From: Bacteroidota bacterium
Lineage (GTDB): Bacteria > Bacteroidota > Bacteroidia > Bacteroidales > GCA-2711565
Assembly: GCA_018816945.1 (NCBI GenBank)
Contig: JAHIVC010000069.1
Coordinates: forward strand, 37,339-101,338
DNA: 64,000 nucleotides
Direction of reading: 5' to 3'
The stretch's first letter is position 1. Every line of letters begins with the position of its first letter. Shown here piece after piece: positions 26,225-58,283 of this stretch. Under the pieces are notes generated by a model. It was not told the DNA's origin. It saw nothing but the letters and a program-made list of their open reading frames with translations, and made no database searches. The position numbers and the translations under genes are program-made.

Positions 26225-26241
26225 TTTTTAATACTAAGGAG

Positions 26242-29957: not shown

Positions 29958-29968
29958 GGTTTTAATCA

Positions 29969-30105: not shown

Positions 30106-30145
30106 AATCTGAATCTTGAATCGAACAACTTAAAAAAATAAAAAA

Positions 30146-30544: not shown

Positions 30545-30546
30545 AA

Positions 30547-31668: not shown

Positions 31669-31679
31669 AGACTAATAAG

Positions 31680-33107: not shown

Positions 33108-33118
33108 CTTATAAAGCC

Positions 33119-34327
33119 ATGAGCAAAGGAACAGATTTAAAACCGCATATAGGTATTTTTGGAAGAAGGAACAATGGGAAAAGTTCATTTATAAATGCTA
33201 TTATTGGTCAGGAAGTAGCGATTGTTTCGGATCAGTCAGGTACAACCACTGATCCTGTAAAAAAATCGGTTGAGATTTTTGGAGTTGGTCCTGTTGTAAT
33301 GATCGATACGGCCGGAATTGACGATACAGGCGAATTGGGCTCAAAAAGGGTAGCGAAAACACGGGAGGTGATTAAAACCATCGATCTGGCCATTTTAATC
33401 ATTGCAAAAAACACTTTTGGTGATGACGAAGTTGAACTGTTGAATGAATTTAAAGCGTTTAATATCCCGGCCATCATTATTCATAATAAAGCTGATATTG
33501 AGGAACTTGATTTTGATACGCTTGATCGGATTAAATTCTTCTTAAACTCTGAAGTGCTTGATTTTAGCGCCATTGATAAGGAGAATAAGGAAAAAGTAAT
33601 TGAAGCCATCAAAAGAAATATTCCAAAAACGGCATACCAAAAACCTTCTTTATTCAAAGGAATCCTAAAACCAAAAGACGTGGTGCTTTTGGTAACACCA
33701 ATCGACTCGGAAGCTCCTGATGGCAGAATGATTTTACCTCAGGTGATGGCCTGGCGCGATGTGCTCGACAAGGATTGTATCTGCATGTCGGTGAAAGAAA
33801 CAGAACTGGAATATTTTATGAAACTTGGAATTAAACCTGCGTTGGCGGTTACCGATAGTCAGGTTTTCGATTATGTAAATTCAGTTCTTCCTGCAGAAAT
33901 CCCATTAACAAGTTTTAGTATTCTTTTTGCCCGATTAAAGGGCGATCTGGATGTTTACATCAAAGGAACTAATCAAATCGATAAATTACAAAATGAGGAT
34001 AAAATATTGATCCTGGAATCATGCACCCATCAGTTAAGTTGTGAAGATATCGGAAGGTTTAAAATACCCGTTTGGTTGGAGAAGCATACCGGTAAAAAAT
34101 TACATTACGAATTCCGATCTGGATTAAATGCCTCATTAGAAGATCTGACTGAATATGCTTTGGTTATTCAATGTGGTGGCTGTGTTGCAACCCGCAAGCA
34201 AGTCCTGAACAGGTTGCAAATCGTATCGGGGAAAAATATTCCAATTACTAATTATGGGATGCTGATTGCTTATGTGAATGGTATTTTTGAGAGAGTTATT
34301 CAACCTTTTTATCAAGATGAAACATAA
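33119..34327 (+). CDS. hydF: [FeFe]-hydrogenase maturase GTPase HydF
   Basis: P-loop GRRNNGKSS, DTAG, NKAD, and C-terminal Cys/His motifs (SCTH...QCGGC). Confidence 0.9.
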   Translation: MSKGTDLKPHIGIFGRRNNGKSSFINAIIGQEVAIVSDQSGTTTDPVKKSVEIFGVGPVVMIDTAGIDDTGELGSKRVAKTREVIKTIDLAILIIAKNTFGDDEVELLNEFKAFNIPAIIIHNKADIEELDFDTLDRIKFFLNSEVLDFSAIDKENKEKVIEAIKRNIPKTAYQKPSLFKGILKPKDVVLLVTPIDSEAPDGRMILPQVMAWRDVLDKDCICMSVKETELEYFMKLGIKPALAVTDSQVFDYVNSVLPAEIPLTSFSILFARLKGDLDVYIKGTNQIDKLQNEDKILILESCTHQLSCEDIGRFKIPVWLEKHTGKKLHYEFRSGLNASLEDLTEYALVIQCGGCVATRKQVLNRLQIVSGKNIPITNYGMLIAYVNGIFERVIQPFYQDET

Positions 34328-35399
34328 TCGTTTAAAGGAAATCCTTCAAAAATCTTTTCTTGAGAAAGAAGACATTCTTATGCTTCTCAACACTTACGGG
34401 GCGGAAAAGGAATTGTTATTTGAATATGCCTCGATGGTCAAAAATCAAAATGTCGGAAACAAGGTTTATTTGAGAGGGTTGATCGAGTATTCAAATATTT
34501 GTAAAAAGGATTGTTATTATTGCGGTATCCGATCGTCAAACCATTATTTTTGCCGTTATGAAGTTACTCCGCAGGAGATAGCTGAGGCATGTAATTTTGC
34601 TGTTCAAAATCGATTGGGTTCAATGGTCGTGCAAAGTGGCGAATTACAATCAGATGCATTTACCGATAAAATATTGGAGCTTATCAAAATAATTAAATCC
34701 CGTTCCAACGGAAAAATGCGCATCACTTTATCTTGTGGAGAACAAAAACCCGAAGTTTATCAAAAATGGTTCGATGCAGGTGCCGAGCGTTATTTGTTGA
34801 GGATTGAAACTTCCAATCAGGAATTGTATAAAAAAATTCACCCCGACAATGGTATTCATAATTATCAGAATAGAATTGATGCTTTAAATAACCTGAAAAA
34901 GATAGGGTTTCAAACAGGCACGGGAGTAATGATAGGTCTTCCCTACCAAACCATTGAAGATTTGGCCGATGATATAATTTTTATGCGCGATATTGATATC
35001 GACATGTGCGGAATGGGGCCATTTATTGAACATGAAAACACCCCATTATACAGCCATAGACAATCTTTACTTCCATTACAGGCACGTTATCAATTAGGAC
35101 TTAAAATGATTGCTGTTTTACGCATTGTTATGAAAGATATCAATATTGCATCAACAACTGCTTTGCAGGCCATTGACCCTCGTGGTAAACGCAGTGGTTT
35201 AGAAGTTGGAGCTAATGTAATCATGCCAAATATCACCCCGGTGAAATATAAATCCAATTATCATCTGTATAAAGACAAACCAGGATCAGGCTTAAGTATT
35301 GAAGATGAGTTAAATTATTCGGTTCAAACCATTGAAAAAGCAAATTGTGTTGTTGCTTATGAAGAGTCCGGTGATTCGCTGCGTTTTGTAAACAGATAA
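34317..35399 (+). CDS. hydE: [FeFe]-hydrogenase maturase HydE (radical SAM)
   Basis: Radical SAM motif CKKDCYYCGIR with BioB-like architecture. The ORF opens at 34278. I prefer the ATG at 34317 (MKHNRLKEIL), which overlaps the hydF stop (ATGAAACATAA). The start is uncertain. Confidence 0.85.
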   Translation: MKHNRLKEILQKSFLEKEDILMLLNTYGAEKELLFEYASMVKNQNVGNKVYLRGLIEYSNICKKDCYYCGIRSSNHYFCRYEVTPQEIAEACNFAVQNRLGSMVVQSGELQSDAFTDKILELIKIIKSRSNGKMRITLSCGEQKPEVYQKWFDAGAERYLLRIETSNQELYKKIHPDNGIHNYQNRIDALNNLKKIGFQTGTGVMIGLPYQTIEDLADDIIFMRDIDIDMCGMGPFIEHENTPLYSHRQSLLPLQARYQLGLKMIAVLRIVMKDINIASTTALQAIDPRGKRSGLEVGANVIMPNITPVKYKSNYHLYKDKPGSGLSIEDELNYSVQTIEKANCVVAYEESGDSLRFVNR

Positions 35400-38285: not shown

Positions 38286-40250
38286 ATGACTGTAATTCTC
38301 AGAAGATCAGAGATAAATGATCTTGATTTACTTGATAATATCGAAAAAGCCTGTTTTAAAAAGTTTCAACAAAGCTCCCGACGAAATCTTCACCATAGTT
38401 TGACCAGTCCGTTTCAGGAAGTATGGATAGCTGAGATAAAAAATGGAAAAGGTAATAATGAAGTAGGGGCATTGATACTTCATTTGCGTTCACATACATT
38501 AAGAATATACTCGCTTGCAGTTCTTCCTGCTTTTCAAGGAAAGGGAATAGGTCGGAAATTATTGACCCATGCCTGCAATATTGCACTGGCAAAGGGTTGT
38601 GTCAAGGTTTCTTTAGAAGCTCATTCTAAAGACGAAAGGCTGATTGGATGGTACAAACGTTTTGGTTTTAAACCTAAAGATATTCAGAAAGATTACTATT
38701 CGAAAGGCGAGGATGCAGTTCGAATGATTTTTACTTTGTCAAGACCTAAAGTTCGATCTACAATTTCAAATTTAATTGTTGTTGATAGAACTTCCGATTG
38801 GAAGCTAAAACTTGATGGCGTAAGGATCGTGTCTTCAAAGAGTTATATTGCCGACCCTGAATTTCAAACGAACATGAAATTAAGGGTATTCAATCTTAGC
38901 AATTCATATCGCTATCAAAGCCTCGGGTATTATGTTTCACTACTTGCTTCGGCCCGCGATCATAGGGCTATTCCCAGTGTTACTACAATGCGCGATTTTA
39001 AGAATCTATCGGTTATACGATCCATAGCAAATGATATTGATGAAATAGTACAGGCAGCTTTAGCAAAAGTAAATGAGAAAGAGTTTAGCTTAAAAATCTA
39101 TTTTGGACAAACTACTGAATCTGCTTTTAAAATATTAGGGTATAAATTGTATCAGTTATTTGAGTCACCAATTTTGGAAGTGAGTTTTGTTAAAACTGAT
39201 AAGTGGTTGATTAAAAAAATATCCCCTTTAAGTCTGGAAAAAATAAAAGATGTTGAACATGAACAAATTCAATCTTTTGCGAATACATACTTCTCAAAAA
39301 AAAGATTTCAAAAACCCCGGTTGAAACATTATAAATATGATTTGGCCATTCTTATCAATCCGAATGAACCGAATCCTCCATCATGTCCATTAGCTTTGAA
39401 ATCGTTTAAAGAAGCTGCCAATAAAATCGGTTTTTATGTCGATTTTATTACAAAGGATGATTATCATGATATTTGTGAATATGATGCACTTTTTATTCGT
39501 GAAACTACAAGCGTAAATGATCATACTTATCAGTTTTCACGCCGTGCATATGCTGAAGGATTGGTTGTGATCGACGATCCATGGTCAATATTACGCTGTG
39601 CCAATAAGGTATACTTGAATGAAAGGATGAAGCAGAATAAAATTGCCACTCCTCGAACAGAAATGTTAACAAAAGGAGTTTTTAATTTGGCAAATGCCGA
39701 ATTATTTACTTTCCCTTTGGTACTGAAACAGCCTGATAGTGCATTTTCACTGGGAGTTACCAAAGTAACCAATGCGGCAGAGATGGTTGAATCTGTGCAA
39801 AAATTATTTCAGAAGTCGGATTTAATTATAGCACAAGAATTCCTTTATTCTGAATTCGATTGGCGAATCGGCATTTTAGATCAAGTGCCATTGTTCGCCT
39901 GTAAATATTTTATGGCCAAAGATCATTGGCAGATCTATAATTGGAAAGCATCAAAAGATGAGGGTACAGGAGAAGCCGAAACTGTCTCAATTTCAATGGT
40001 ACCTGAAAACGTATTGAAGGTTGCTTTAAAGGCAGCCGCCTTAATGGGCGATGGATTGTATGGGGTTGACTTGAAGGAAGTAGGGGATAAGGTTTATGTC
40101 ATCGAAGTAAATGATAATCCAAATATAGATGCAGATATTGAAGACTTTGTTTTAAAAGATGAACTCTACACAAAAGTAATGCAAACTATTTTTAATCGAA
40201 TAGAAGATTCGAGAAATACCAAGCGACTCGTAGCTGTTGAGTTAACATAA
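38286..40250 (+). CDS. GNAT acetyltransferase fused to a RimK-like ATP-grasp ligase
   Basis: 654 aa. The N-terminal GNAT has motif A LAVLPAFQGKGIGRKLL. The C-terminal ATP-grasp has FPLVLKQPDSAFSLGV, IAQEF, DWRIGIL and VIEVNDNPNID. Confidence 0.75.
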   Translation: MTVILRRSEINDLDLLDNIEKACFKKFQQSSRRNLHHSLTSPFQEVWIAEIKNGKGNNEVGALILHLRSHTLRIYSLAVLPAFQGKGIGRKLLTHACNIALAKGCVKVSLEAHSKDERLIGWYKRFGFKPKDIQKDYYSKGEDAVRMIFTLSRPKVRSTISNLIVVDRTSDWKLKLDGVRIVSSKSYIADPEFQTNMKLRVFNLSNSYRYQSLGYYVSLLASARDHRAIPSVTTMRDFKNLSVIRSIANDIDEIVQAALAKVNEKEFSLKIYFGQTTESAFKILGYKLYQLFESPILEVSFVKTDKWLIKKISPLSLEKIKDVEHEQIQSFANTYFSKKRFQKPRLKHYKYDLAILINPNEPNPPSCPLALKSFKEAANKIGFYVDFITKDDYHDICEYDALFIRETTSVNDHTYQFSRRAYAEGLVVIDDPWSILRCANKVYLNERMKQNKIATPRTEMLTKGVFNLANAELFTFPLVLKQPDSAFSLGVTKVTNAAEMVESVQKLFQKSDLIIAQEFLYSEFDWRIGILDQVPLFACKYFMAKDHWQIYNWKASKDEGTGEAETVSISMVPENVLKVALKAAALMGDGLYGVDLKEVGDKVYVIEVNDNPNIDADIEDFVLKDELYTKVMQTIFNRIEDSRNTKRLVAVELT

Positions 40251-40345: not shown

Positions 40346-40633
40346 ATGCCCAGAACAAAGTGCAAGCGATACATTGAAACTGAGCCATTTGTTACTTATT
40401 ACAAACCGACAGGGATACCTTTACGAACAATCACTGAAGTTACTCTCGAGCTTGATGAATTGGAAGCCATTCGATTAGCAGATTTGGAAGGTTTATATCA
40501 GGATAAAGCAGCTGAAAAAATGATGGTGAGCCGACAAACATTTGGACGAATAATTAGCGGTGCCCATCAAAAAATTGCAGAAGCACTAATTCATGGAAAG
40601 GCTATTAAAATTAATCATCAAAACAATACTTAA
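40346..40633 (+). CDS. DUF134 (UPF0251) putative DNA-binding protein
   Basis: 95 aa. MPRTKCKRYIE..P....YKP.GIP plus a sigma70-r4-like HTH (QDKAAEKMMVSRQTFGRII). Confidence 0.8.
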   Translation: MPRTKCKRYIETEPFVTYYKPTGIPLRTITEVTLELDELEAIRLADLEGLYQDKAAEKMMVSRQTFGRIISGAHQKIAEALIHGKAIKINHQNNT

Positions 40634-40634
40634 A

Positions 40635-40823
40635 ATGGCACATCTGGATCATAAGGGCCCTGAAAATAAAGGTCCTAAAACAGGAAGAAAACTTGGGAAA
40701 TGTAAAAAGGATGAAGAAAACGAATTTGAATTTGGTGTTGGTAAGGGAATGAAAAGAAAAGCAGAAGATAATAGTGAAGGAAAAGGGAAAAGACTGAAAA
40801 GTGGAAAAATGTTTAACAAATAA
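40635..40823 (+). CDS. DUF5320-like small basic protein
   Basis: N-terminal KGPENKGPKTGRKLGKC fits the GP..GP.TGR..G.C pattern I recall for DUF5320. I chose the ATG at 40635, just after the DUF134 stop, rather than the overlapping 40593 start. Confidence 0.5.
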   Translation: MAHLDHKGPENKGPKTGRKLGKCKKDEENEFEFGVGKGMKRKAEDNSEGKGKRLKSGKMFNK

Positions 40824-40835
40824 AAGGCTTTAAAA

Positions 40836-41219
40836 ATGAAAAAAATTGCAGTTCCAACCAGAAATGACATTGTTGATGCACACTTTGGTCATTGTGAGTA
40901 TTATTCAATTTTCACAGTAAATGAAAAAAGCGAAATTATTGATAAAGAATTATATGCCGCTCCACAGGGTTGTGGATGTAAATCGAATATTGCACCTTTA
41001 CTTGCAGAAAAAGGAGTATATTTAATGTTGGCCGGTAATATGGGGGTGGGGGCAGTTAATGTGCTTCAATCATCTAATATAGAGGTATTAAGAGGTTGTG
41101 AAGGGAAAGTGGATGAAGTTGTAAGTAGTTATTTGAGTGGTATGCTTAGCGATAGTGGCAAAAGTTGTGCGCATCATGCACATCATGGATCGGACGATCA
41201 TCAGTGTGAACATCACTAA
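40836..41219 (+). CDS. NifB/NifX-family (dinitrogenase FeMo-cofactor-binding fold) protein with a His-rich C-terminal tail
   Basis: 127 aa with HFGHC and a LAGNMG-type motif typical of the family. The tail is CAHHAHHGSDDHQCEHH. Confidence 0.8.
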   Translation: MKKIAVPTRNDIVDAHFGHCEYYSIFTVNEKSEIIDKELYAAPQGCGCKSNIAPLLAEKGVYLMLAGNMGVGAVNVLQSSNIEVLRGCEGKVDEVVSSYLSGMLSDSGKSCAHHAHHGSDDHQCEHH

Positions 41220-41225
41220 AATAAA

Positions 41226-41335
41226 TAGAATGTAGAATGCAGAATGTAGAATGTAGAAACCAGCAACCACCTGCCTGCCGCAGGCAGGGCAACCAGAAAC
41301 CAGAAACCAGAAACCAGAAACCAGAAACCAGAAAC
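41226..41335. repeat. Second copy of the heptamer-repeat / CCTGCCTGCCGCAGGCAGG palindrome element
   Basis: tagaatg-type heptamers x4-5 on the left, and a palindrome at 41270-41288 identical to that at 30022-40. On the right, ccagaaa x5. Confidence 0.85.
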
Positions 41336-41365
41336 AATACCTAATAACCTATAAAAATATATCAA

Positions 41366-41806
41366 ATGAAAGTTGGCATTATTATTTGCGATCGCTACCA
41401 GACATGTGGGGGCGGTAAATGTTTTAGATCAGTACAAAACCGAGAAGGTGCATTTTCAATCTATTCAAAGGATGAGCCATTGGAAGTGGTCGGATATTCG
41501 ACATGTGGCGGTTGTCCGGGCGGTAATGTGGAATATGTTCCCGAAGAAATGATCAAAAATGGGGCTGATGCTATCCATCTTGCAACCGGTTTGGTTGTTG
41601 GATATCCACCTTGTCCTTATATCAACGATTTCAAACATTTTATTGAGGTAAAATATAAAACAAAAGTTGTACTTGGCACCCATCCAATTCCTTTGAAATA
41701 TAAAAATGTTCATGAAAAGCTTGAAATGTGGGGGAATTGCAATATGTCGGAATGTGCAGGACATTTATTGTCGGAAAGTGAGGAAATGATGGAGTCCTAT
41801 AATTAG
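41366..41806 (+). CDS. CGGC domain protein
   Basis: 146 aa with CDRYQTCGGGKC and STCGGCPG motifs. Confidence 0.75.
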   Translation: MKVGIIICDRYQTCGGGKCFRSVQNREGAFSIYSKDEPLEVVGYSTCGGCPGGNVEYVPEEMIKNGADAIHLATGLVVGYPPCPYINDFKHFIEVKYKTKVVLGTHPIPLKYKNVHEKLEMWGNCNMSECAGHLLSESEEMMESYN

Positions 41807-45690: not shown

Positions 45691-46038
45691 AATCTTCAGT
45701 CAAATCAATTGTTAGTTTTATTCTGTTTGTAAGACTCCTTTTTATGATTTTTGTTACAATATATTGTTTAAATATTTTTTCTAGAGCAAGAATTACAGTT
45801 CATATTCTGAGTTTTGAATTTTTAACCTATCCCAATAAAATATAAAAAATTTAATATCGTTGAATATATCAACACGTGTATGTAATTTCAACACGCATGC
45901 TAACGTGCAGATTAATAGTGCTATGGATGATAATACCATATGCGGTGTTGAATAATGCAATATTATTTTGTGAGATGAATAAATAAGGTGTTGTTGTAAT
46001 GTGCAGATAATCAATTCTATAGGATTAAAAATTTGCTT

Positions 46039-46054
46039 TGGCACTATAATTGAC
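46039..46054 (+). promoter_or_regulatory. Candidate sigma54 (-24/-12) promoter
   Basis: TGGCAC-TATAA-TTGAC versus the consensus TGGCAC-N5-TTGC. GG/TTG spacing is correct and there is one mismatch in the -12 GC. It lies 86 nt upstream of the ATG at 46140, and a sigma54 activator gene sits at 52473. Confidence 0.35.
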
Positions 46055-46139: not shown

Positions 46140-47816
46140 ATGAAAAAGTTAATCTATTTATTTATCGGATTATTGATGCTAATAAGTATTTGTCCGAGCA
46201 GCAATGGAACTGAAATCAATAATGAAATTTCTAAGGAAGGATCTATGACCGTTTTATGCTCACCTGATTTATTTAATTTAACGAACAGATGGGTTGAAGA
46301 ATATGGCAAATTGAATCAGGATTTAAAAATCAAAGTACTTAAAATTGACCATAATTCTGTTGACAAAGCTTACAGCTCAGGTTTTAATGTGAGTTTGGTT
46401 TCGGAAAGTTCTTTATACTTACTTAAGAAGCCAACGAATTTATCGCTTGTTGTTGGTAGAGATATTTTAGTTCCTATCATGAATGCGAATAATCCTTTAA
46501 AAACTGAAATTTTAACTCAAGGGATTTCTTCAGGAAAACTTGCCGGGTTTTTTAAAAGCCAAGGGGATCATAATTGGGGTTCGCTTTTGAATATTGAATC
46601 AAATTTTCCTATCCATTATTATAAATCAGATAATGATGAGCTTAGTTCTGCCGTTGAAGAATTTTTAAAAATGAATGGGATAGCCATTGAAGGAATAATT
46701 GTCGCTAATAATCAGGAAGTAATTACGTCAGTTCAGAAAGATATTTATTCCATTGCATTTTGCAGGATCACAGATGTTATAAATCCTATGAATAATGAGA
46801 TGCTTGAAAATATCACCTTACTGCCAATAGATAAGAATGGGAATGGTAAAATGGACTCTTTTGAACAGATTTATAATGATTTGAATGCATTTTCAAGAGG
46901 TGTTTGGATTGGGAAGTATTCAAAGGAATTGGTCACAAATATTTATGCTGTTTCTAACCAAAATGTTGATAATGGTAAAGAAAAAGAATTCATCAAATGG
47001 ATGCTTACCGATGGACAACAATTTTTAAGCACCGATGGATATTCTGAATTGATGCTTAGCGAGCGACAATCTAAATTAGATGTATTATATAATGATAAGA
47101 TAATTCTTAACGCAATCGAAAACCTGAACTATAGTCGTCAAAGAGTTGGTCTTTTCATTTTAATAATTGCAACCATTATAGGTTTAATAGTCGGTTCAAC
47201 TTTTTATTTCAAAAGACAAAAAAGTACAGAAAAACCGACTTTAATTTCAAAACCGATTGGGTATTTTGATGCAAAATCAATAAGTGTTCCTAATGGATTA
47301 TTTTTCGATAAAACCCACACCTGGGTATATATGGAAATGGATGGTGTTCTAAGAATAGGAATAAATGATTTTATTACCAGAATTACAGGTGACCTCACAG
47401 GTATTAAGATGAAGAATCCAGGGGAAGAAATAAGGAAAGGAGATACTATAATCACACTTATTCAAAATGGGAAACAATTAAACATCAAGTCACCGGTTTC
47501 TGGTATTATTAGTCAACAAAACGAAAAACTAAACGCAAATGCCGCTATTATTAAAGAATGTCCGTATTCTGAAGGCTGGGTTTATGTAATTGAGCCGACC
47601 AATTGGTTTCGTGAGATTCAGTTTTTATTCATGTCTGAAAAATTCAAAAAATGGTTAATCTCCGAATTTACCCGACTCAAAGATTTTCTTTCTCAAACCC
47701 AAAATATGCCTTTAGTGCTTCAAGAAGGAGGTGAACTTAAAGAAGCTATACTTGCAGATTCTCGACCTGAAGTATGGGAAGATTTTCAATCCAATTTTAT
47801 AGATACCGCTTTATAA
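46140..47816 (+). CDS. Bitopic protein: periplasmic PstS/PBP-like domain, one TM, cytoplasmic GcvH-like domain
   Basis: 558 aa. Signal peptide, a substrate-binding-protein-like region, and a TM (VGLFILIIATIIGLIVGSTFYF followed by KRQK). The C-terminus resembles glycine-cleavage H (HTWVYME..GVLRIGINDF...SPVSGII...PYSEGWVYVIEP). Confidence 0.6.
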   Translation: MKKLIYLFIGLLMLISICPSSNGTEINNEISKEGSMTVLCSPDLFNLTNRWVEEYGKLNQDLKIKVLKIDHNSVDKAYSSGFNVSLVSESSLYLLKKPTNLSLVVGRDILVPIMNANNPLKTEILTQGISSGKLAGFFKSQGDHNWGSLLNIESNFPIHYYKSDNDELSSAVEEFLKMNGIAIEGIIVANNQEVITSVQKDIYSIAFCRITDVINPMNNEMLENITLLPIDKNGNGKMDSFEQIYNDLNAFSRGVWIGKYSKELVTNIYAVSNQNVDNGKEKEFIKWMLTDGQQFLSTDGYSELMLSERQSKLDVLYNDKIILNAIENLNYSRQRVGLFILIIATIIGLIVGSTFYFKRQKSTEKPTLISKPIGYFDAKSISVPNGLFFDKTHTWVYMEMDGVLRIGINDFITRITGDLTGIKMKNPGEEIRKGDTIITLIQNGKQLNIKSPVSGIISQQNEKLNANAAIIKECPYSEGWVYVIEPTNWFREIQFLFMSEKFKKWLISEFTRLKDFLSQTQNMPLVLQEGGELKEAILADSRPEVWEDFQSNFIDTAL

Positions 47817-47861
47817 AGAAAAGCTTATTGAAATTTTTAATTCATAATAATATTTAAAACC

Positions 47862-48725
47862 ATGAGTATTAATCGAAGAAATTTTTTTAAGTTCCTTAGC
47901 CTAACAGGACTAACTCTAGCTGTTGGAAAGGAATCTGTTGCCCAATCTGATAAGAGCCAGGAAGTAGATTTCTTAAGCATCCTATACGATTCAACCCGCT
48001 GTGTAGGATGTCAAAGTTGTGAATTTGCCTGTGCCGAAGCGCATGATTTACCTGAGCCTGTGGGTTCACCTGAACCCGGTATAATCCGTAAACTTGATGA
48101 GACCAATCGGTGTGTGATTAATTGTTACAACACTTCGAAAGGGGAGATATATGTAAAACAACAATGCATGCATTGCAACGAGCCGGCTTGTTCTTCAGCT
48201 TGCCTCACAAATGCCATGCATAAAACAAAGGAAGGCCCGGTGATCTGGAGAGACAATAAGTGTATGGGATGCCGGTATTGCATGATATCCTGTCCATTTG
48301 ATATTCCTAAATTTGAATTCTATAGCGTAAATCCAAAAATCCAGAAATGCAATATGTGTTTCGACAGGCTCGAAGAAGCTAAAATACCGGCCTGTGTCGA
48401 AAATTGTCCTGCTGAAGCGTTAGTTTTTGGAACGAGAAGAGAATTGATAAAGGAAGCCAGAAAAAGAATAGTTGAAGATCCGGATACATATGTAGATCAA
48501 ATTTATGGCGAACATGAAGCCGGTGGCACTGGCAGCCTGTATTTATCATCTGTGCCATTTAACGAACTGGGATTTAGAACGAACCTTCACAAAACCTCTT
48601 ACCCTGAATTGTCCAAGGGATTTCTTTATAGTGTACCAACCATATTTGTCCTTTGGCCCGCACTATTATTAGGAATAAATGAAGCCACTAAAAATAATCA
48701 CGTAAAAGAAGACGAAAATGAGTAA
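47862..48725 (+). CDS. Tat-exported 4x[4Fe-4S] ferredoxin-like subunit (HybA/PsrB/DsrO-like) with a C-terminal TM anchor
   Basis: Twin-arginine signal NRRNFFKF. Four Cys clusters: CVGCQSCEFAC, CMHCNEPAC, CMGCRYCMISCP and CNMC...CVENCP. A hydrophobic C-terminal helix. Confidence 0.8.
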   Translation: MSINRRNFFKFLSLTGLTLAVGKESVAQSDKSQEVDFLSILYDSTRCVGCQSCEFACAEAHDLPEPVGSPEPGIIRKLDETNRCVINCYNTSKGEIYVKQQCMHCNEPACSSACLTNAMHKTKEGPVIWRDNKCMGCRYCMISCPFDIPKFEFYSVNPKIQKCNMCFDRLEEAKIPACVENCPAEALVFGTRRELIKEARKRIVEDPDTYVDQIYGEHEAGGTGSLYLSSVPFNELGFRTNLHKTSYPELSKGFLYSVPTIFVLWPALLLGINEATKNNHVKEDENE

Positions 48726-49947
48726 TACGAAGTATGCCATTGCAAAGGATAATGATGGTAAAAATATGCTGAAATTTTTATTAGGTGAATTGAAACCAAA
48801 AGGTAAAATAATCACGCCTTTTAATATTATATCCGTACCGGTAATTCTGGTCGGAACAGTAATTATTGTCTATCGGTTTATCCACGGATTGGGTTCGGTT
48901 TCAAACATTTCGCAAGAAATTCCATGGGGGCTTTGGAAAGGTTTTAATGTGGTAACCGGAGTTGCCTTTGCCGGTGGTGCTTATGTTCTTACATTTATTG
49001 TTTACATTCTCAATGTCAAGAAGTTTCACTCGTTGGTTAGGATTACGGTTCTCAACGGTTTTCTTGCCTACATGTTTTATGCCGGGGCTCTGGTTCTCGA
49101 CTTAGGAAAACCCTGGAATATTATCAACCCGATTATCGGTAACAGCTTTGGTGCCAGCTCGGTTCTGTTTTTGGTAGCCTGGCATTTCTTACTCTACATG
49201 ATTGCCCAACTGATCGAATTTTCACCGGCAATTGCAGAATGGTTGGGTGCCAGACGGGCTCATAAAATTCTTTCCGGGATGACGCTGGCTGCTGTTATTT
49301 TTGGTATTACTTTGTCAACGCTGCATCAGTCTGGTCTGGGAGCCATGTATTTAATGGCCAAAGAAAAAATACACCCTCTCTGGTATTCTGAGTTTATCCC
49401 GGTCATGTTCTTCGTTTCCAGTATTTTTGCAGGGCTTTCACTGGTTATTTTTGAAGGCTCCATAAGTAAAAAAGTATTTTCTGATCAGATAAGTGATAAA
49501 AACCACAAGGCACACCACGGAATAGTCATCAGCTTTGCAAAAGTTTGTGCCGTTACCATGTTTGCTTACTTTTTTCTTCAGATTCTGGTTTTTGTACACG
49601 GTCAACATTGGGATTTATTAAATACATCGATGGGTTATTGGTACCTGACCGAAATGTTGGGATTTGTACTTTTTCCAATGTTGCTTTTCTTCTATGGTTA
49701 CCGAAGAGATAACTCGTTGTTGGTTAAGATCGCCGCCATCATCACTATGCTAGGGATTATAATTAACCGATTGAATGTGACGATTATAGGTTTTCGATGG
49801 GATGCGGTTCCTCGTTATTATCCATCATGGATGGAAATTGTTGTTTCACTGGCTATAATCTTTACCGAAATTTGGATATTCCGATGGATTATTAATCGCA
49901 TGCCAGTTTTAAGGGAATCTCCCATCTGGGCGAAAAATCAAAAATAA
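48718..49947 (+). CDS. NrfD/PsrC/HybB-family integral membrane quinone-interacting subunit
   Basis: 409 aa with about 10 TM helices. It overlaps the FeS subunit gene by 8 nt. Family assignment rests on size, topology and pairing with a HybA-like gene. Confidence 0.75.
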   Translation: MSNTKYAIAKDNDGKNMLKFLLGELKPKGKIITPFNIISVPVILVGTVIIVYRFIHGLGSVSNISQEIPWGLWKGFNVVTGVAFAGGAYVLTFIVYILNVKKFHSLVRITVLNGFLAYMFYAGALVLDLGKPWNIINPIIGNSFGASSVLFLVAWHFLLYMIAQLIEFSPAIAEWLGARRAHKILSGMTLAAVIFGITLSTLHQSGLGAMYLMAKEKIHPLWYSEFIPVMFFVSSIFAGLSLVIFEGSISKKVFSDQISDKNHKAHHGIVISFAKVCAVTMFAYFFLQILVFVHGQHWDLLNTSMGYWYLTEMLGFVLFPMLLFFYGYRRDNSLLVKIAAIITMLGIIINRLNVTIIGFRWDAVPRYYPSWMEIVVSLAIIFTEIWIFRWIINRMPVLRESPIWAKNQK

Positions 49948-49990
49948 ATTAACCTGTATTCTTTTTTTGAATACCTAAAAAATAAAAGCA

Positions 49991-50710
49991 ATGGACGGAT
50001 TTACTTATCATGATATCTTCCAAACAAAAGGAATAGAATATCTTGTAATTATTGCATTTCTGATTATCCTTATTCCTTTCTGGATCATTATTAATCGAAA
50101 AGACATAATCATTCGGAAAATAAAGGAAACATTTGGAATTCTCACATCAGACATTTTAAAAATCCCTAAAGGGGTATTTTTTAGTAATCATCATACCTGG
50201 GCTCATCTTGAAAAATCAGGAGTCGCTGAGGTTGGTCTGGATGATTGGTTACTCCATTTAGCCGGAGAAGTCGAGTTTGGTCAGATCAAGGAAAAAGGAG
50301 CTGAGATAAAGAAAGGTGAAATACTTACTCAAATAGTTAGTAAAGGTAGGTTCTTGAATATCATTTCACCCATATCCGGGGTGGTTATAGATACCAATCC
50401 CATGCTTCGTGAAGATGCTTCAATAATTGGGCAAGATCCATATAAGAAGGGTTGGATCTGTAAAATAGAACCTTCAAGTTGGAAATCCGAAACTTCTTCC
50501 TTTTATGTTGGTGAGGAAGCTAAGCAATGGCTTAAGATAGAATTGGAACGGTTTAAAGATTTTATTTCCATTTCGTTGGCTAAAAACCATCCTGAAAGCT
50601 CCTTGATTATAATGCAGGAAGGTGGAGAACTTCGCGATCATCCACTTTATGATTTACCTAAGGATGTTTGGCAGGATTTTCAAAAAATATTTTTAGATAG
50701 TGAGGTATAA
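49991..50710 (+). CDS. Membrane-anchored GcvH-like protein (paralog of the C-terminus of 46140-47816)
   Basis: 239 aa. N-terminal TM followed by RKDIIIRKIK, then HTWAHLEKSGVAEVGLDDW...SPISGVV...PYKKGWICKIEP. The tail MQEGGELRD...VWQDFQKIFLD matches LQEGGELKE...VWEDFQSNFID in the larger protein. Confidence 0.6.
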   Translation: MDGFTYHDIFQTKGIEYLVIIAFLIILIPFWIIINRKDIIIRKIKETFGILTSDILKIPKGVFFSNHHTWAHLEKSGVAEVGLDDWLLHLAGEVEFGQIKEKGAEIKKGEILTQIVSKGRFLNIISPISGVVIDTNPMLREDASIIGQDPYKKGWICKIEPSSWKSETSSFYVGEEAKQWLKIELERFKDFISISLAKNHPESSLIIMQEGGELRDHPLYDLPKDVWQDFQKIFLDSEV

Positions 50711-50718
50711 AAGATTGT

Positions 50719-50750
50719 ACAAAACTGGTGATTTATCACCAGTTTTTTGT
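50719..50750 (+). terminator. Rho-independent terminator
   Basis: Stem AAAACTGGTGA / TCACCAGTTTT with loop TTTA, followed by a T-run. Confidence 0.7.
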
Positions 50751-50800
50751 ACTTTGTAGGCTATATTTAAATCTCTGGCATCTTGTAATCATTTCGTGAT

Positions 50801-52468
50801 ATGAATTTATTCAGGCAAAAAAGTAAGATTGGTTTCGAAAATTCATTTATGCACAAATATTTGAGGTTTCATTCTTCGATTTATGGCAGGGTTGTTTATA
50901 TCATTACTATACTTTCAGTAATCCTTTTTCTTTCATTCGGTATCATTTTCAGATCAGTTTATCGGGAATATTTAAATACGGTAATTCGCCAAAGCGGAAA
51001 CAATGTCGGGTCGGTAGTAGAAGGTGCTTTATATTATTCCATGCTTACGAACGACAAGGGCAGCCTCCAAAGTACGATGGATATTATCAATACCATGAAT
51101 GGAATCGATGAAGTAAATATGTACGATAGCAAAGACAGCTTGGCTTATTCTTCCTTTTTTTCTGATTCTATTAATTCAGGCAACCCCAATTGTGTTGCCT
51201 GTCATGATGATTTAAACGAAATGTTTGTCTGGAATGAGAAATCGTATAAAATTATAGATATAAAAAGTGCCTGTAGTATGAATAAGACCGAAAAAGGTCA
51301 CAGGCAACTTCTGATCCGAACCCCGATCATGAATGAAAAATCATGCTATCTCAGTTCATGCCATGCGCATAATGAAAGTGATGAACTTCTTGGTTCGCTG
51401 ATTATTAAAATTCCATTAAATGATCTTGATACCGCTATTCAAAAATCTTCTGCCGAATTTTTTATTCTAGCCATATTAACCACAATTCTTTTAGTGTCCT
51501 TTTTGATTTTATTTACCAGTGATAAAATTAAAAAACCGTTGAATGCCATTATCCAAGCAAGTGAATCTGTTGCCAGAGGTGATAAAAGCACAAGATTGGA
51601 AATTAAACCCAATCTGCTGGATGATATGAGATTGGTGTCACAGGCCTTCAATAATATGCTGGATAATTTGAATGCGGCCAATATTGAGCTCGAAAACTGG
51701 TCGCATCAGCTTGAATACAAGGTACAAAAGAAAACCGTGGAACTTTCAGAAATTCAGCAGGAGTTAATACATATTGAACGGATTGCTTCACTTGGGAAAT
51801 TGTCATCATCAGTTGCACATGAAATAAACAATCCGCTATCAGGTGTATTAACTTATACAAAGCTGGTTCATAAGCAACTTGAAAAATTGGAAATGGATTC
51901 AAAATCAAAGGAATCGATGTTGAAATATTTGAAGGTGATAGAGGCTGAAACAAAACGTTGTGGGGACATTGTAAAGAGTCTTTTGGATTTTTCGAGGAAA
52001 GATGAAGTAAATTTTGAAAATAAATCACTTCACAAGATTTTAAAAGATGCCTACGATTTGATGGCACATCAAATGAAAATATTGAATATCAATTTTTATG
52101 TTGATTTTACAGCCTCGAATGACTTGATAAGTTGTCGTGAAAACCAAATAAAGCAAGCTAGCATTGCAGGTTTAGTGAATGCCTCCGAAGCGGTATCACA
52201 AAATGGTGAAATAGTGATGAAAACTTCTAATCCTGATAAGGATCACATAAAGCTTGAAATTATTGATAATGGCGTAGGAATTACCCCTGATGATATACCA
52301 CATATTTTTGAACCATTCTTTTCTGCCAAACAAAAAGTAAGTGGGATTGGTTTAGGACTAGCAATTGTTCACGGTATAGTTCAAAATCATAAAGGTAAGA
52401 TTGAAGTGGATTCAGAACTGGGTAAAAGAACTACCATTTCCATTATTTTACCATTAGTAAAAATTTAA
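50801..52468 (+). CDS. Sensor histidine kinase with a periplasmic heme-c-motif domain, HAMP, HisKA and HATPase
   Basis: 555 aa. Between TM1 and TM2 lie CVACH (CXXCH) and CYLSSCH (CX4CH). Then a HAMP-like segment, the H-box AHEINNPLSG, and DNGVGI / GIGLGLAI. Confidence 0.85.
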   Translation: MNLFRQKSKIGFENSFMHKYLRFHSSIYGRVVYIITILSVILFLSFGIIFRSVYREYLNTVIRQSGNNVGSVVEGALYYSMLTNDKGSLQSTMDIINTMNGIDEVNMYDSKDSLAYSSFFSDSINSGNPNCVACHDDLNEMFVWNEKSYKIIDIKSACSMNKTEKGHRQLLIRTPIMNEKSCYLSSCHAHNESDELLGSLIIKIPLNDLDTAIQKSSAEFFILAILTTILLVSFLILFTSDKIKKPLNAIIQASESVARGDKSTRLEIKPNLLDDMRLVSQAFNNMLDNLNAANIELENWSHQLEYKVQKKTVELSEIQQELIHIERIASLGKLSSSVAHEINNPLSGVLTYTKLVHKQLEKLEMDSKSKESMLKYLKVIEAETKRCGDIVKSLLDFSRKDEVNFENKSLHKILKDAYDLMAHQMKILNINFYVDFTASNDLISCRENQIKQASIAGLVNASEAVSQNGEIVMKTSNPDKDHIKLEIIDNGVGITPDDIPHIFEPFFSAKQKVSGIGLGLAIVHGIVQNHKGKIEVDSELGKRTTISIILPLVKI

Positions 52469-52472: not shown

Positions 52473-53822
52473 TTGATTATGTCAAAAAATATTTCAATAC
52501 TAATCGTTGATGATGAAGAATCTGTAAGGGATTCATTATACAACTGGTTTATCGAAGATGGTTATCGTGTCGAATGCGCCGGTAATGCTAAAGAGGCATT
52601 GTCTATTATCGAATCCAGAGAATTTGATATCGTACTAGCGGATATTAAAATGCCCGGCATGGATGGATTGGAAATGCATCGTAGAATAAAAGCGCAAAAT
52701 AAAGAAACCATCGTCATAGTTATGACTGCATTTGCATCGGTTGATACAGCTGTTCAGGCCTTAAAAGATGGTGCCTACGATTACATAACCAAGCCATTTG
52801 ATCCTGACGATCTTTCACATCTGGTTAGAAATGCTGCCAAACAAATTACTTTAAAAGCAGAAAATGAAGCCTTAAGGAACAAAATGAATGAGCTTGAAAA
52901 TGTCGAAGACATTATCGGGAAAAGTGAAGGTATGCTGAAAGTGCTCAAGGAAGTTAAGAGTGTGGCGCAATCTAATTCTTCCGTTATCATTACCGGAGAA
53001 AGTGGTACAGGAAAAGAACTTATTGCCAGGGCCATTCATTTTAATTCTTCCCGCAGGTATTTCCCTTTGGTAAGTGTTCATTGTGGAGCTTTGACGGAAA
53101 GTTTGCTGGAGAGTGAATTGTTTGGTCATGAAAAAGGAGCATTTACAGGTGCCATGTATAACCGAAAAGGCAGGTTCGAAATGGCCGATGGCGGAACGAT
53201 ATTTCTTGATGAAATAGCTACAATTTCTTCAAAAACACAAGTAGAATTGCTACGTGTGCTGGAATCGAAGAGTTTTATGCGGGTAGGGGGTAATAAAGAA
53301 ATCAGTTCCGATTTCAGGGTGATTTGTGCAACCAATAAAGATTTGAAAAAGATGGTGGAGAACGGAACATTCAGAGAGGATTTATTTTATCGGTTGAATG
53401 TGGTTAATATCAATATCCCACCGCTTCGCGATAGGGTAGAGGACATTCCAATGCTGATGAATCATTTTATAATTAAGTATTGTACTGCGATGAGCAGGGA
53501 TATGGTCACAATTGAACCGGCAGCCTTAAAACGCCTGGAGGAATTTGAATTTCCGGGTAACGTACGTGAACTCGAAAATATGATCGAACGTGCCATTGTA
53601 ATCGGGAATGGGAAAGAAATCCGTTTGGCAGATCTTCCGATGGGGAAAGACATCATTTACAGTTCAGTTGAAAGTTTGGATGATCTTGAAAAAAAATACA
53701 TACTGCAAATTCTAAACAAGTATGATTGGAATATTACCCGTTCCGCTAAAGCCCTAAAAGTTGACAGGGTAACCCTTTACAATAAAATCAAAAAATACGA
53801 TTTGAACGCAAGCAAGACATAA
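52473..53822 (+). CDS. Sigma54-dependent response regulator (NtrC/AtoC family)
   Basis: Receiver (ILIVDDE...VLADIKMPGMDG). AAA+ domain with GESGTGKE, the GAFTGA motif (EKGAFTGA) and ESELFGHE. C-terminal Fis-type HTH. Confidence 0.9.
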   Translation: MIMSKNISILIVDDEESVRDSLYNWFIEDGYRVECAGNAKEALSIIESREFDIVLADIKMPGMDGLEMHRRIKAQNKETIVIVMTAFASVDTAVQALKDGAYDYITKPFDPDDLSHLVRNAAKQITLKAENEALRNKMNELENVEDIIGKSEGMLKVLKEVKSVAQSNSSVIITGESGTGKELIARAIHFNSSRRYFPLVSVHCGALTESLLESELFGHEKGAFTGAMYNRKGRFEMADGGTIFLDEIATISSKTQVELLRVLESKSFMRVGGNKEISSDFRVICATNKDLKKMVENGTFREDLFYRLNVVNINIPPLRDRVEDIPMLMNHFIIKYCTAMSRDMVTIEPAALKRLEEFEFPGNVRELENMIERAIVIGNGKEIRLADLPMGKDIIYSSVESLDDLEKKYILQILNKYDWNITRSAKALKVDRVTLYNKIKKYDLNASKT

Positions 53823-53917: not shown

Positions 53918-54451
53918 TTGGATAAGCATAACATCATATTGATTGCTCATGGACAATTCGAAACCAGCTTTCTGAGAGAAATAGCTGAAGAAGTAGCATT
54001 TGAGTATAATTGTTCCGTAGCTGTTCAAGAGAGTCAACTCGATTTGACGAATTTTTATGATCCTACACGCCGGCAATATGATGGGTATAAGTTACTTAAG
54101 GAAATCGAAGGAATGAATATTGCCGGTTATAATAAAAAGATTGGGTTATTTCGGGTCGATTTGTTTATCCCTATTCTCACCTATATTTTCGGTCAGGCTT
54201 TCTTTAAAGGTAATTCAGGAATTGCTTCACTTTACCGACTCAAAAATGAGCAATACGGAATGAAGACCGATCAGAATTTGCTTTTTTATCGTTTCAGAAA
54301 AGTCATCATTCATGAAATTGGTCATACTTTCGGATTGATTCATTGCCATGTTCCAAACTGTGTCATGCGATCAAGTACCTACGTGGAGGATATTGATCAG
54401 AAGAGGAATCATTTGTGCAATAACTGCAGGGAAGAGATGATGAAACACTGA
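53918..54451 (+). CDS. Archaemetzincin-like (M54) zinc metallopeptidase
   Basis: HEIGHTFGLIHC...CVM...CNNC fits the HEXXHXXGX3CX4CXM...CXXC archaemetzincin signature. Confidence 0.75.
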   Translation: MDKHNIILIAHGQFETSFLREIAEEVAFEYNCSVAVQESQLDLTNFYDPTRRQYDGYKLLKEIEGMNIAGYNKKIGLFRVDLFIPILTYIFGQAFFKGNSGIASLYRLKNEQYGMKTDQNLLFYRFRKVIIHEIGHTFGLIHCHVPNCVMRSSTYVEDIDQKRNHLCNNCREEMMKH

Positions 54452-56675: not shown

Positions 56676-58283
56676 TTATTTAATTGTCAGAATGATAGGG
56701 GATAGAGACCTTTCATCATTAAAAGGCCCTACTGCAACAATATTATCAAATAATAAATTTTGCCCTCGGTTTGTAATTTCAATTTGTGCAATCATTTCCT
56801 CAGTTAATAATCCATTGTTAGAAATATATTGATATATATTAAATCCTTTTTGAATTGTTAATTTAAATGATTTTATTTCAAAAGTTAGATCAAAACTAAA
56901 ATCGGACGGCATTTTTGGAACAATGGCACCAGCTGCAAGCAGAATCTCTCGATTTATAAAACCTTCCTTAATATTTGCAATTGTTGCTATTGGATCAGGT
57001 AGCCGTTTAATCCTAAAATTTTGTGAACCCATTTCTTTTTTAATTCCGTTGATGATTGCCGAAATCGTTATTACGGTATACCTTTCATCGGGAGGAACCG
57101 TTACAGTCCATTTATCAGATGAAAGACCGGCAGTTATGGTCCCTTTCGAAATTACCGGATGGAGATTTTCCTTAGAAATCCCTGAAACTGAAATGGAAAC
57201 TGTATTCTCAACACCGATATATAATACATTCATTTCTGCCACTGAGATAGTAACTGAAGGTTCTGCTACTACATATTGATTAGAAAAATGATAATAATTT
57301 GTTTCACCGGATGAAGTTTTTACTCCAATAACCCCGGCATATTTATTTATACCTGTCTTCCGTGCAGGTAGACGGATATCAGATTTTCCATCAATACTAC
57401 TAATCAGTTCTGCTTTGCTTAGTTCACTAATTGGAAGTGAATCCACATCTCTCATTAAATATATTTCAGGGCTCTGGCTTGTGTCATAAGCTGCAACAAT
57501 CACTTCTGCCTTATATTCATCTCCAACAAAAATGTAATTATTATCCGGTAGAACTTTTGCATCAATTTTATCATAGCTAAAATCTTCGGCATTTATTTCA
57601 TCCATTAACTTATTTACAATTTCAAATTCCGCATCATATACTTCGGTAATAATTTTATTTAAAATCGTGATATCTGCAGCCAGTATTGTGTTGTAAAAAT
57701 GATGAGCTTCCCAATTCTGTCTTTGTCCATCAGCATTAAAGTAAGTACTATCAGTAATGAGTCCAAGCTTTAAGTCATTTCTATCTTTGGGATTTATCAG
57801 CTCAATCATTTTTTGACGATGTTCGATAATCTTTTCCTTTAAGTATCTTGATTTTCCTTGTGAACCATCATGGGAATCACCCATAAGATAGGCTGTTGTT
57901 AAACTATAATTATCTTTACTTTTTAAGTTTCTAATTTCAATTGTTTTTGCTGAATCTATTGATATTTTTTCAGTTACTGAAATCAACTCATATCGAAGGT
58001 TACTGATAAATTCAATCATTTTTCCAGAAAGGGATTTTGCTTCCCTGGCTTTATCCCAATAAGGCTTAACCTCATGCTGATTTAACTGGTACATTTTTTC
58101 AAAAGTGCCATAAGTGCTTTGAAGCCTCTGTGAAAATTTCTCGTTTGTTAATACTATACTTTCATTTACAACCAAAAACGCATCAATCACTTCTTTAGAA
58201 ACATTAATTGCTAATAAGGCCGTAAGCACAAGGTACATCATAGCAATCATGCGTTGTCTGGGTGTTTCTTTTGCTCCTGCCAT
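56676..58283 (-). CDS. gldM: GldM/PorM homolog (T9SS/gliding motor periplasmic shaft protein family)
   Basis: 535 aa. The N-terminus MAGAKETPRQRMIAMMYLVLTALLAINVSKEVIDAF closely parallels the canonical GldM N-terminus and TM helix. C-terminal FRIKRLPDPIATI is like GldM FRIKGIPGP. No gldL, gldK or gldN is adjacent. Confidence 0.85.
   Translation of the reverse strand: MAGAKETPRQRMIAMMYLVLTALLAINVSKEVIDAFLVVNESIVLTNEKFSQRLQSTYGTFEKMYQLNQHEVKPYWDKAREAKSLSGKMIEFISNLRYELISVTEKISIDSAKTIEIRNLKSKDNYSLTTAYLMGDSHDGSQGKSRYLKEKIIEHRQKMIELINPKDRNDLKLGLITDSTYFNADGQRQNWEAHHFYNTILAADITILNKIITEVYDAEFEIVNKLMDEINAEDFSYDKIDAKVLPDNNYIFVGDEYKAEVIVAAYDTSQSPEIYLMRDVDSLPISELSKAELISSIDGKSDIRLPARKTGINKYAGVIGVKTSSGETNYYHFSNQYVVAEPSVTISVAEMNVLYIGVENTVSISVSGISKENLHPVISKGTITAGLSSDKWTVTVPPDERYTVITISAIINGIKKEMGSQNFRIKRLPDPIATIANIKEGFINREILLAAGAIVPKMPSDFSFDLTFEIKSFKLTIQKGFNIYQYISNNGLLTEEMIAQIEITNRGQNLLFDNIVAVGPFNDERSLSPIILTIK

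Follow-up and report, generated by a model that had tools for sequence, protein, structure and literature searches.

A conserved gene cassette of Bacteroidia that pairs an FeS/NrfD-type membrane unit with two membrane-tethered GcvH-fold proteins and a sigma-54 regulatory circuit

Many anaerobic respiratory enzymes couple to quinones through a common unit, a pair formed by an iron-sulfur (FeS) protein and an NrfD-type membrane subunit, which normally works with a catalytic subunit. What, then, is the role of such a pair in a 64,000-nucleotide stretch of a Bacteroidota genome (assembly GCA_018816945.1, contig JAHIVC010000069.1, positions 37,339 to 101,338; hereafter the window), where it is enclosed by two genes for membrane-anchored proteins resembling GcvH, the H-protein of glycine cleavage, and has no catalytic gene beside it? 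An initial annotation of the sequence had proposed that these four genes (genes 1 to 4; Table 1) encode a new quinone-linked module whose cytoplasmic face recruits GcvH-fold domains as carrier, regulator or scaffold, possibly gated through a domain of gene 1 resembling a periplasmic binding protein (PBP). We find that the module is conserved, that its GcvH-like genes co-occur with the FeS/NrfD pair, that their domains are predicted to be cytoplasmic and that a catalytic gene is lacking, whereas the carrier role came out as unlikely and the PBP-like domain as lying outside the core.

The four open reading frames (ORFs) are all present on the plus strand where the initial annotation had placed them, genes 2 and 3 overlapping by 8 nt, and its domain calls hold, with matches to Pfam GCV_H in genes 1 and 4, Fer4_11 in gene 2 and NrfD in gene 3, the last above the Pfam cut-off. 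The terminator that it had put after gene 4 is also seen, as a terminator-like hairpin; the conserved unit does not stop there, however, but runs on through genes for a sensor histidine kinase, a sigma-54-dependent response regulator and an archaemetzincin (peptidase M54) to position 54451. These three genes had been overlooked, together with a sigma-54 promoter and its upstream motif, an affinity to the Hmc and Nhc complexes of Desulfovibrio, and multihaem cytochromes that occasionally flank the cassette in other genomes.

A pattern scan for relatives of gene 4, using one genome per species, matched 447 genomes, and neighbourhoods were taken from the best 80; neighbour families were counted by clustering all neighbouring ORFs of 82 loci. 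The best 80 of the 447 carriers were nearly all metagenome-assembled genomes (MAGs) of Bacteroidia, including Prolixibacteraceae, Salinivirgaceae, Tangfeifania, Mariniphaga and Draconibacterium, and the closest relative of gene 4 was found in HGW-Bacteroidetes-17 (88% identity). Wherever the contig allows, the order gene 1, gene 2, gene 3, gene 4, kinase, sigma-54 regulator, M54 peptidase is kept, in about 70 of the 80 species-level genomes, and L036 and L050 are the only two loci in which gene 4 is not followed by these last three genes. The co-occurrence on which the proposal depended is complete, the GcvH-like genes flanking the FeS/NrfD pair in translationally close-packed order in 82/82 loci, and every neighbour family beyond the seven genes was present in at most 10 of them. 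The same seven genes surround divergent members at 33–37% identity, and in Marinimicrobia they are joined by an extra soluble, Cys-rich GcvH-like protein after gene 4. A homology search with this extra protein gave four clusters, all from Marinimicrobia, and no wider link; in one such locus it lies between gene 4 and the kinase gene (L087:10758-11516) as a third GcvH-like protein, with the N-terminal motif C-x12-C-x5-C-x2-C. A search of the full library for relatives of the GcvH-fold proteins returned 284 clusters at 50% identity (E < 1e-30), essentially of two architectures, of about 237 and about 560 aa, and the lineage as a whole extends to more than 1,300 protein clusters and no fewer than 447 species-level genomes. 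We found no description of the cassette in the literature searched, and a review of NrfD proteins lists no GcvH-associated type (PMC8076601). The idea of a conserved module without a published account is thereby borne out: its components are of known kinds, and what is new is the combination of an FeS/NrfD pair without a catalytic subunit, two tethered GcvH-fold proteins without the lipoyl-lysine and a regulatory circuit of their own.

The lack of a catalytic neighbour, first noted for the window, extends to the family, as no hydrogenase, molybdopterin or cytochrome gene adjoins the pair here and none is conserved in the 82 loci. Genes for the small or large subunit of [NiFe]-hydrogenase and for molybdoenzymes were absent from all 82 neighbourhoods, HmcE and HmcF (cytochrome b, HdrD-like) from every neighbourhood surveyed, and the 64-kb window holds no c-type cytochrome, its sole CxxCH motif lying in the kinase. 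Cytochromes were encoded near the cassette in about six loci, always outside the operon. Small c554-like tetrahaem cytochromes with a signal peptide occur within 10 kb, in varied arrangements, in L003, L022, L040, L047, L061 and L087. Large fusion proteins, with a multihaem cytochrome c in front and an FdnI/Ni_hydr_CYTB-like cytochrome b as the C-terminal part, adjoin the cassette in L040 (9817-12300, with 16 CxxCH motifs), L047 (15481-18294, with 18) and L087 (17811-20321, minus strand), loci labelled as belonging to three phyla: Bacteroidia, ‘Chlorobiota’ and Marinimicrobia. These fusions resemble, in our view, the CbcL-type quinol oxidases. Through weak guilt by association, periplasmic multihaem cytochromes could be the redox partners of the module.

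Does the pair itself still look capable of electron transfer? The gene 2 product has the RR motif of the twin-arginine translocation (Tat) pathway and a C-terminal hydrophobic tail, both the twin arginine and the tail anchor being kept in the family, and 16/16 cluster cysteines are invariant in an alignment of 76 family members with Escherichia coli HybA; its closest sequence match in the PDB is FdnH. The gene 3 product, with 9–10 hydrophobic segments by hydropathy, has 29% identity to E. coli HybB and gave no PDB sequence match at E < 0.01. Residues R89, Y99, E148 and H184 of HybB correspond to R108, Y118, E167 and H203 of gene 3; the last three are unchanged in 81/81 family members and in the Marinimicrobia homologue, and the position of R89 is Arg in 80 of the 81 and Lys in one. 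Replacement of any of these four residues in HybB is reported to lower hydrogen oxidation (PMC8076601). Most residues of the putative N-side channel of HybB are also invariant in the gene 3 family, whereas several at its predicted quinone site and P side are changed in gene 3 (S105A, E133L, S190A and E268V). Because the cluster cysteines and the key residues of HybB are conserved, the pair looks functional rather than degenerate.

Its nearest kin are to be sought in the Hmc and Nhc complexes. Measured against NCBIfam equivalog cut-offs of 420 bits (HmcB), 550 bits (HmcC) and 34 bits (HmcD), gene 2 matches HmcB best, at 315 bits, followed by HybA (236 bits), and gene 3 matches HmcC best, at 394 bits, followed by HybB (250 bits), all four scores falling below the cut-off. 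The N-terminal 30 residues of gene 4 give a weak, sub-threshold match to HmcD (E 0.007, 16 bits), a likeness that recurs on the N-terminal helix in 16 of 24 gene 4 homologues (best E 2e-4, again sub-threshold), and this N-terminus (MdGF.Y.nIFeTKGiEY...) is unusually conserved for a mere anchor. Desulfovibrio operons have the gene orders hmcB-C-D and nhcB-C-D, with which the order FeS protein, NrfD subunit, D-like helix in the cassette agrees. The cassette thus shares with Hmc and Nhc a Tat-exported, tail-anchored four-cluster FeS protein and a cofactor-less NrfD-type subunit, encoded in the order B-C; the D position would be taken by the gene 4 helix, with its weak match to HmcD. It differs from them in lacking the multihaem cytochrome HmcA/NhcA within the operon, as well as HmcE and HmcF, in the fusion of its D-like helix to a GcvH-fold domain and a novel tail, and in an additional transmembrane (TM) GcvH-fold subunit, which in Bacteroidia carries a PstS-like domain. 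It is found in Bacteroidia and Marinimicrobia, not in sulfate reducers, and its genes are accompanied by those for a kinase, a sigma-54 regulator and an archaemetzincin. HybA/HybB of E. coli hydrogenase-2 has the same architecture of a Tat-exported, tail-anchored 4x[4Fe-4S] protein with an NrfD subunit of the 10-TM type, and the four residues traced above are shared, while the quinone-site and P-side residues partly differ; the cassette loci lack HybO and HybC genes, and Hyb in turn has no GcvH-fold partners.

The GcvH-like regions of genes 1 (residues 388-505) and 4 (residues 64-182) match Pfam GCV_H with E-values of 1e-21 to 1e-23, but score only 59–76 bits against NCBIfam GcvH models with equivalog cut-offs of 116–117 bits. 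AlphaFold2 (AF2) models of the two proteins align with solved H-proteins (1onl and 3ab9) at Foldseek TM-scores of about 0.75–0.8 and 23–31% identity; the predicted local distance difference test score (pLDDT) is 70 for gene 1 and 67 for gene 4, higher within the domain of the latter. The framework motifs HxW, SPxSG and PY..GW are kept, and the initial view of the two regions as paralogues was confirmed (36% identity over 191 aa of domain plus tail, E 6e-50). Unlike soluble GcvH of about 130 aa, both proteins are tethered to the membrane and carry extra parts. These include a shared C-terminal extension of about 60 residues (W..E..RFKDF ... LQ(D/E)GGEL ... P.EVW(E/Q)DFQ..F(I/L)D; LQEGGEL...VWEDFQ..FID in gene 1), which is kept across phyla in both paralogues and modelled with low confidence. 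Databases name the two proteins ‘glycine cleavage system protein H’ or ‘hypothetical’, the former label being probably misleading. On a separate contig (L094:3328-4692), a protein of 454 aa (P0268) joins a partial PstS-like domain to the HmcD-like helix, GcvH fold and tail of the gene 4 type; the contig otherwise holds many small unannotated ORFs and a C1 peptidase, and is possibly a phage or mobile element.

For the lipoyl site, we aligned the domains with E. coli and Bacillus subtilis GcvH sequences. As the initial annotation had it, the column of the lipoyl-lysine is Gly in both window proteins, a lysine following it directly in gene 1 (K445, position +1) and preceding it in gene 4 (position −1). 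That placement stands for the window, but the family-wide pattern is G-K in both paralogues, and gene 4 of the window is among the few members with Arg at +1. Among gene 4 homologues the canonical column is Gly in 116 of 120, with Lys (116), Arg (3) or Gln (1) at +1; for gene 1 homologues the counts are 118/118 Gly and 118/118 Lys; and in 145 representatives at 50% identity Gly occupies the column in 130, while the +1 residue of the 145 is Lys (135), Arg (7) or another (3). Replacement of the +1 Lys by Arg occurs in several members of both paralogue types, and rarely by Gln, His or Asn. A conserved positive charge at +1 agrees better with these counts than a universally required acylation site. 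Because the lipoyl-lysine column is Gly family-wide and the +1 Lys gives way to Arg in several members, lipoylation of the GcvH-fold domains is unlikely, as judged from the alignments; the conserved neighbourhood of the 82 loci holds no ligase or lipoyl synthase gene. Set beside GcvH itself, LbpA of the sHdr system and GcvH-L, the cassette domains have the same fold and framework motifs but differ in the Gly that takes the place of the lipoyl-lysine, in the membrane tether and in the conserved tail, and they lack gcvT/P, hdr, dsrE, lplA and SirTM neighbours. A looser analogy is offered by NqrA and RnfC, whose lipoyl-like (barrel-sandwich hybrid) domains carry no cofactor and face the cytoplasm in their respective membrane redox complexes. 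A few cassette members give weak matches to these domains, with no detectable homology beyond the fold class, and the complexes to which NqrA and RnfC belong, as soluble subunits at the periphery, are unrelated.

From hydropathy and the positive-inside rule, the gene 1 product is predicted to start with a signal peptide and a periplasmic domain, to cross the membrane by a TM helix at residues 336-354 and to have its C-terminal part in the cytoplasm; that of gene 4 is predicted to begin with a short stretch outside, to cross by a TM helix at residues 15-33 and likewise to end in the cytoplasm, with four basic residues after the helix vs two before it in gene 1 and five vs one in gene 4. The GcvH-like domains are therefore predicted to be cytoplasmic rather than periplasmic, in line with the original proposal. 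The PBP-like domain of gene 1, also part of that proposal, is real: residues 34-318 or so adopt a PstS-like type II binding-protein fold in the AF2 model (pLDDT about 80–90), the PDB structures that match it best, at 12–18% identity, are phosphate-binding proteins of the PstS type and other oxyanion binders, and Pfam PBP_like_2 matches many gene 1 homologues. In Marinimicrobia (255 aa) and one ‘Chlorobiota’ MAG (227 aa), however, a short TM-GcvH protein without this domain takes its place as the first cassette gene. Because it is absent there, the PBP-like domain is a lineage-specific addition outside the core.

The cassette also appears to bring its own switch. The window contains only two one-mismatch matches to the sigma-54 promoter pattern, and one of them, TGGCAC-N5-TTGA, precedes gene 1 by 87 nt. 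The strict pattern precedes gene 1 in 46 of 69 loci, where by our rough estimate well under one would be expected, and a relaxed pattern does so in 51 of 70. Upstream of the promoter, the 7-mer TGTTGAA/TTCAACA is found in 49 of 51 related loci, and the GTGTTGAA/TTCAACAC repeats of the window are candidate, and probably genuine, binding sites of the sigma-54 activator. This layout is that of a classic operon driven by a sigma-54 activator, and such a regulator is encoded nearby downstream. A second sigma-54 promoter was considered before the kinase gene, where TGGCAT occurs at about 50766, and was rejected for want of a proper −12 element.

The kinase, whose gene is directly followed by that of the regulator in the conserved synteny, has a periplasmic domain of about 165 aa between its TM helices with the motifs CxxCH (C131-H135) and Cx4CHxH (C182-H190). 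Both motifs are present in 72/72 Bacteroidia homologues, and Marinimicrobia keep Cx4CHxH alone. A weak match to sCache_4 was the only one for this sensor domain, for which a PDB sequence search gave no meaningful match; the motifs make haem or metal binding plausible. In NCBIfam, the kinase is matched best by AtoS/ZraS and the regulator by AtoC/ZraR. ZraPSR, AtoSC and TorT/TorS resemble the cassette in a −24/−12 promoter with upstream sites and in a periplasmic binding-protein domain encoded alongside, and differ from it in that the sensor domain of the cassette kinase is unrelated, the target is a redox module and an archaemetzincin is co-encoded. The archaemetzincin matches Pfam M54 and archaemetzincins in the PDB (E 1e-20 in each case) and has both the zinc site, of the form HExxHxxGxxH/C, and the Cys4 motif (HEIGHTFGLIHC...C...CNNC; signature HEIGH...C...C...CxxC). 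An M54 gene was found in 71 loci; outside the window there are loci where it overlaps the regulator gene or lies directly against it, and it is likely to be co-transcribed with kinase and regulator.

Table 1. Cassette, regulatory elements and further features, numbered from the first nucleotide of the window
Feature	Position	Strand	Description
Upstream repeat motif GTGTTGAA/TTCAACAC	45859-45952	+	Copies: palindrome 45859-45875, 45885-45895, 45943-45952
Sigma-54 type −24/−12 promoter	46039-46053	+	TGGCAC-N5-TTGA
Gene 1	46140-47816	+	558 aa; PBP-like domain, TM helix, GcvH-fold domain
Gene 2	47862-48725	+	287 aa; Tat-exported, tail-anchored 4x[4Fe-4S] protein, HmcB/HybA type
Gene 3	48718-49947	+	409 aa; NrfD-family membrane subunit, HmcC/HybB type
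Gene 4	49991-50710	+	239 aa; N-terminal TM helix, GcvH-fold domain, tail
Intrinsic-terminator-like hairpin and T-rich run	50721-50756	+	Hairpin 50721-50746; between gene 4 and kinase gene
Sensor histidine kinase	50801-52468	+	TM1, periplasmic domain, TM2, HAMP, HisKA, HATPase
Sigma-54-dependent response regulator	52473-53822	+	Receiver, AAA+ and Fis-type helix-turn-helix domains
Archaemetzincin (peptidase M54)	53918-54451	+	Pfam M54
M4 peptidase	3824-7051	-	Sorting tail of the type IX secretion system (T9SS)
Hybrid histidine kinase	10681-14562	-	1293 aa; about six PAS domains and a receiver domain
Catalase	16112-17599	-	
[FeFe]-hydrogenase region	23747-35399	+	HydABC type (NuoE-like, NuoF-like, HydA), then hydrogenase-like/histidine kinase fusion
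Hydrogenase-like kinase fusion	27966-29957		Fe_hyd_lg_C, FeS, HisKA and HATPase_c; followed by two receiver proteins, then maturases HydG, HydF, HydE
GNAT acetyltransferase/ATP-grasp fusion	38286-40250	+	654 aa; fused to RimK-like ATP-grasp (RLAN and RimK)
Small-gene trio	40346-41806	+	DUF134 DNA-binding-like, NifX/NifB-like Nitro_FeMo-Co, CGGC-domain
GldM-like protein	56676-58283	-	All four GldM domains; followed by same-strand unannotated ORFs (168 aa, 1017 aa)

How do these parts fit together? Our preferred reading, which we hold tentatively and with nearly an even chance of being right, is that the cassette encodes an inducible, quinone-linked module derived from HmcBCD/NhcBCD, with its periplasmic partner encoded elsewhere and its GcvH-fold domains serving as non-redox caps or regulators. 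The kinase would sense a redox or metal-type signal in the periplasm, and the activator would switch on genes 1 to 4. The FeS/NrfD pair would then exchange electrons with the menaquinone pool on one side and with a diffusible partner in the periplasm on the other, for which a small multihaem cytochrome c, comparable to HmcA/NhcA in the parent complexes, is the most plausible candidate. An NrfD fold consists of two pseudo-symmetric four-helix bundles (PMC8076601), an arrangement that would suit two paralogous partners, so that the GcvH-fold domains might cap or regulate the cofactor-less subunit from the cytoplasm, possibly one on each half, a situation reminiscent of NqrA and RnfC with their unmodified lipoyl-like domains. 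A periplasmic ligand input would be added to this core by the PstS-like domain in Bacteroidia.

The GcvH-like domains might instead be true swinging-arm carriers, lipoylated or otherwise acylated on the shifted lysine and redox-cycled by the module, by analogy with LbpA of sHdr. A genuine H-protein fold with its framework motifs and the +1 Lys found in every close gene 1 homologue speak for such a role, which we nonetheless regard as highly improbable. The canonical column is Gly throughout the family, the +1 Lys is exchanged in both paralogues, gene 4 of the window included, and no ligase or lipoyl synthase gene belongs to the conserved neighbourhood. Moving the target lysine of lipoyl domains by one residue reportedly abolishes lipoylation, a result attributed to Wallis and Perham in 1994. 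Nor would electrons have a path to the GcvH-fold domains, because the FeS clusters are all periplasmic, NrfD-type subunits hold no redox cofactor (PMC8076601) and an HmcE/HmcF- or HdrD-like protein is absent; of the roles first suggested for these domains, that of carrier is accordingly the one we consider unlikely. Only a very small chance also attaches to an ordinary HybA/HybB or HmcB/HmcC anchor whose catalytic genes lie elsewhere or are lost and whose GcvH-like neighbours are unrelated to it. Significant similarity to these proteins and the multihaem cytochromes adjoining a minority of loci would agree with this, but the close-packed GcvH-like genes flank the pair in every locus, the gene 4 helix is strongly conserved and weakly HmcD-like, the scores fall under every NCBIfam equivalog cut-off, the cassette order is kept between phyla at 33–37% identity, and a hydrogenase or molybdoenzyme occurs in 0/82 neighbourhoods. 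The related idea that the locus is a remnant of a known complex was rejected because the cassette is conserved across phyla. Taken over the whole survey, we found neither a conserved catalytic gene, nor GcvH-like genes parted from the pair, nor GcvH-like domains with a predicted periplasmic location.

A harder choice concerns the direction of signalling. Genes 1 to 4 might mainly form a signal-input device for the kinase, following the accessory logic of TorT/TorS, LuxP/LuxQ or ZraP/ZraS: the FeS/NrfD pair would report how reduced the quinone pool or a periplasmic carrier is, the PstS-like domain would report an oxyanion-type ligand, and the GcvH-fold tails would relay these states to kinase, regulator or archaemetzincin. 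We consider this unlikely, though a serious contender. It would fit that kinase, regulator and M54 peptidase accompany genes 1 to 4 across phyla, in some 70 of the 80 genomes, that a conserved catalytic partner is lacking, that the CxxCH and Cx4CHxH sensor domain shares the periplasm with the FeS protein, and that the GcvH-fold tails are the most conserved unexplained elements. Against it, gene 1 is preceded by the conserved sigma-54 promoter with its motif, which favours genes 1 to 4 as the regulated target (feedback being possible), L036 and L050 hold these genes without adjoining kinase, regulator and peptidase, the full retention of the four FeS clusters and the channel residues of HybB looks like that of a working energy-transducing unit, and the PBP-like domain is missing in Marinimicrobia and one ‘Chlorobiota’ MAG. 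Both functions could also be united in a new class of NrfD-family complex, a respiratory module and sensor in one, in which the GcvH-fold domains, turned from a swinging-arm carrier into modules of the cytoplasm without a cofactor, would read or gate the state of the NrfD subunit, be it that of its conformation or of its proton channel, and their tails would signal to kinase, regulator and archaemetzincin; we judge this to be quite unlikely.

Several observations sit uneasily with an inducible module capped by non-redox GcvH-fold domains. The cap model assigns no role to the highly conserved tails of these proteins, and AF2 confidence is low for their tails and linkers. The tight linkage to the kinase, regulator and peptidase genes may point to a relation beyond simple regulation. 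The HmcD resemblance of gene 4 is weak and below the curated cut-off, and most loci, the 64-kb window among them, have no cytochrome nearby, so that the minority cases could be coincidence. Finally, because the +1 Lys is invariant in 118/118 close homologues, the gene 1 paralogue may be covalently modified at this residue.

Elsewhere in the window (Table 1), the region of the hydrogenase-like kinase fusion looks like a sensory-hydrogenase signalling unit beside an enzyme possibly under its control. A Nitro_FeMo-Co gene like that of the small-gene trio also lies upstream of the Marinimicrobia cassette, probably by coincidence, and the GldM-like region is possibly a gliding or T9SS-related cluster.

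In conclusion, a lineage of NrfD/FeS pairs persists in Marinimicrobia and anaerobic Bacteroidia without a catalytic subunit, always together with two GcvH-fold membrane proteins and with a sigma-54 circuit of its own, and its role, once worked out, would add a member to the catalogue of NrfD-type complexes. A new and probably non-lipoylated use of the H-protein fold would thereby be shown. The cassette also gives a testable context for archaemetzincins, which would be the first functional context for the bacterial members of this family if the complex indeed combines respiration with sensing. More broadly, electron flow would be clarified in fermentative or respiratory Bacteroidia, which are abundant in anoxic sediments and groundwater.

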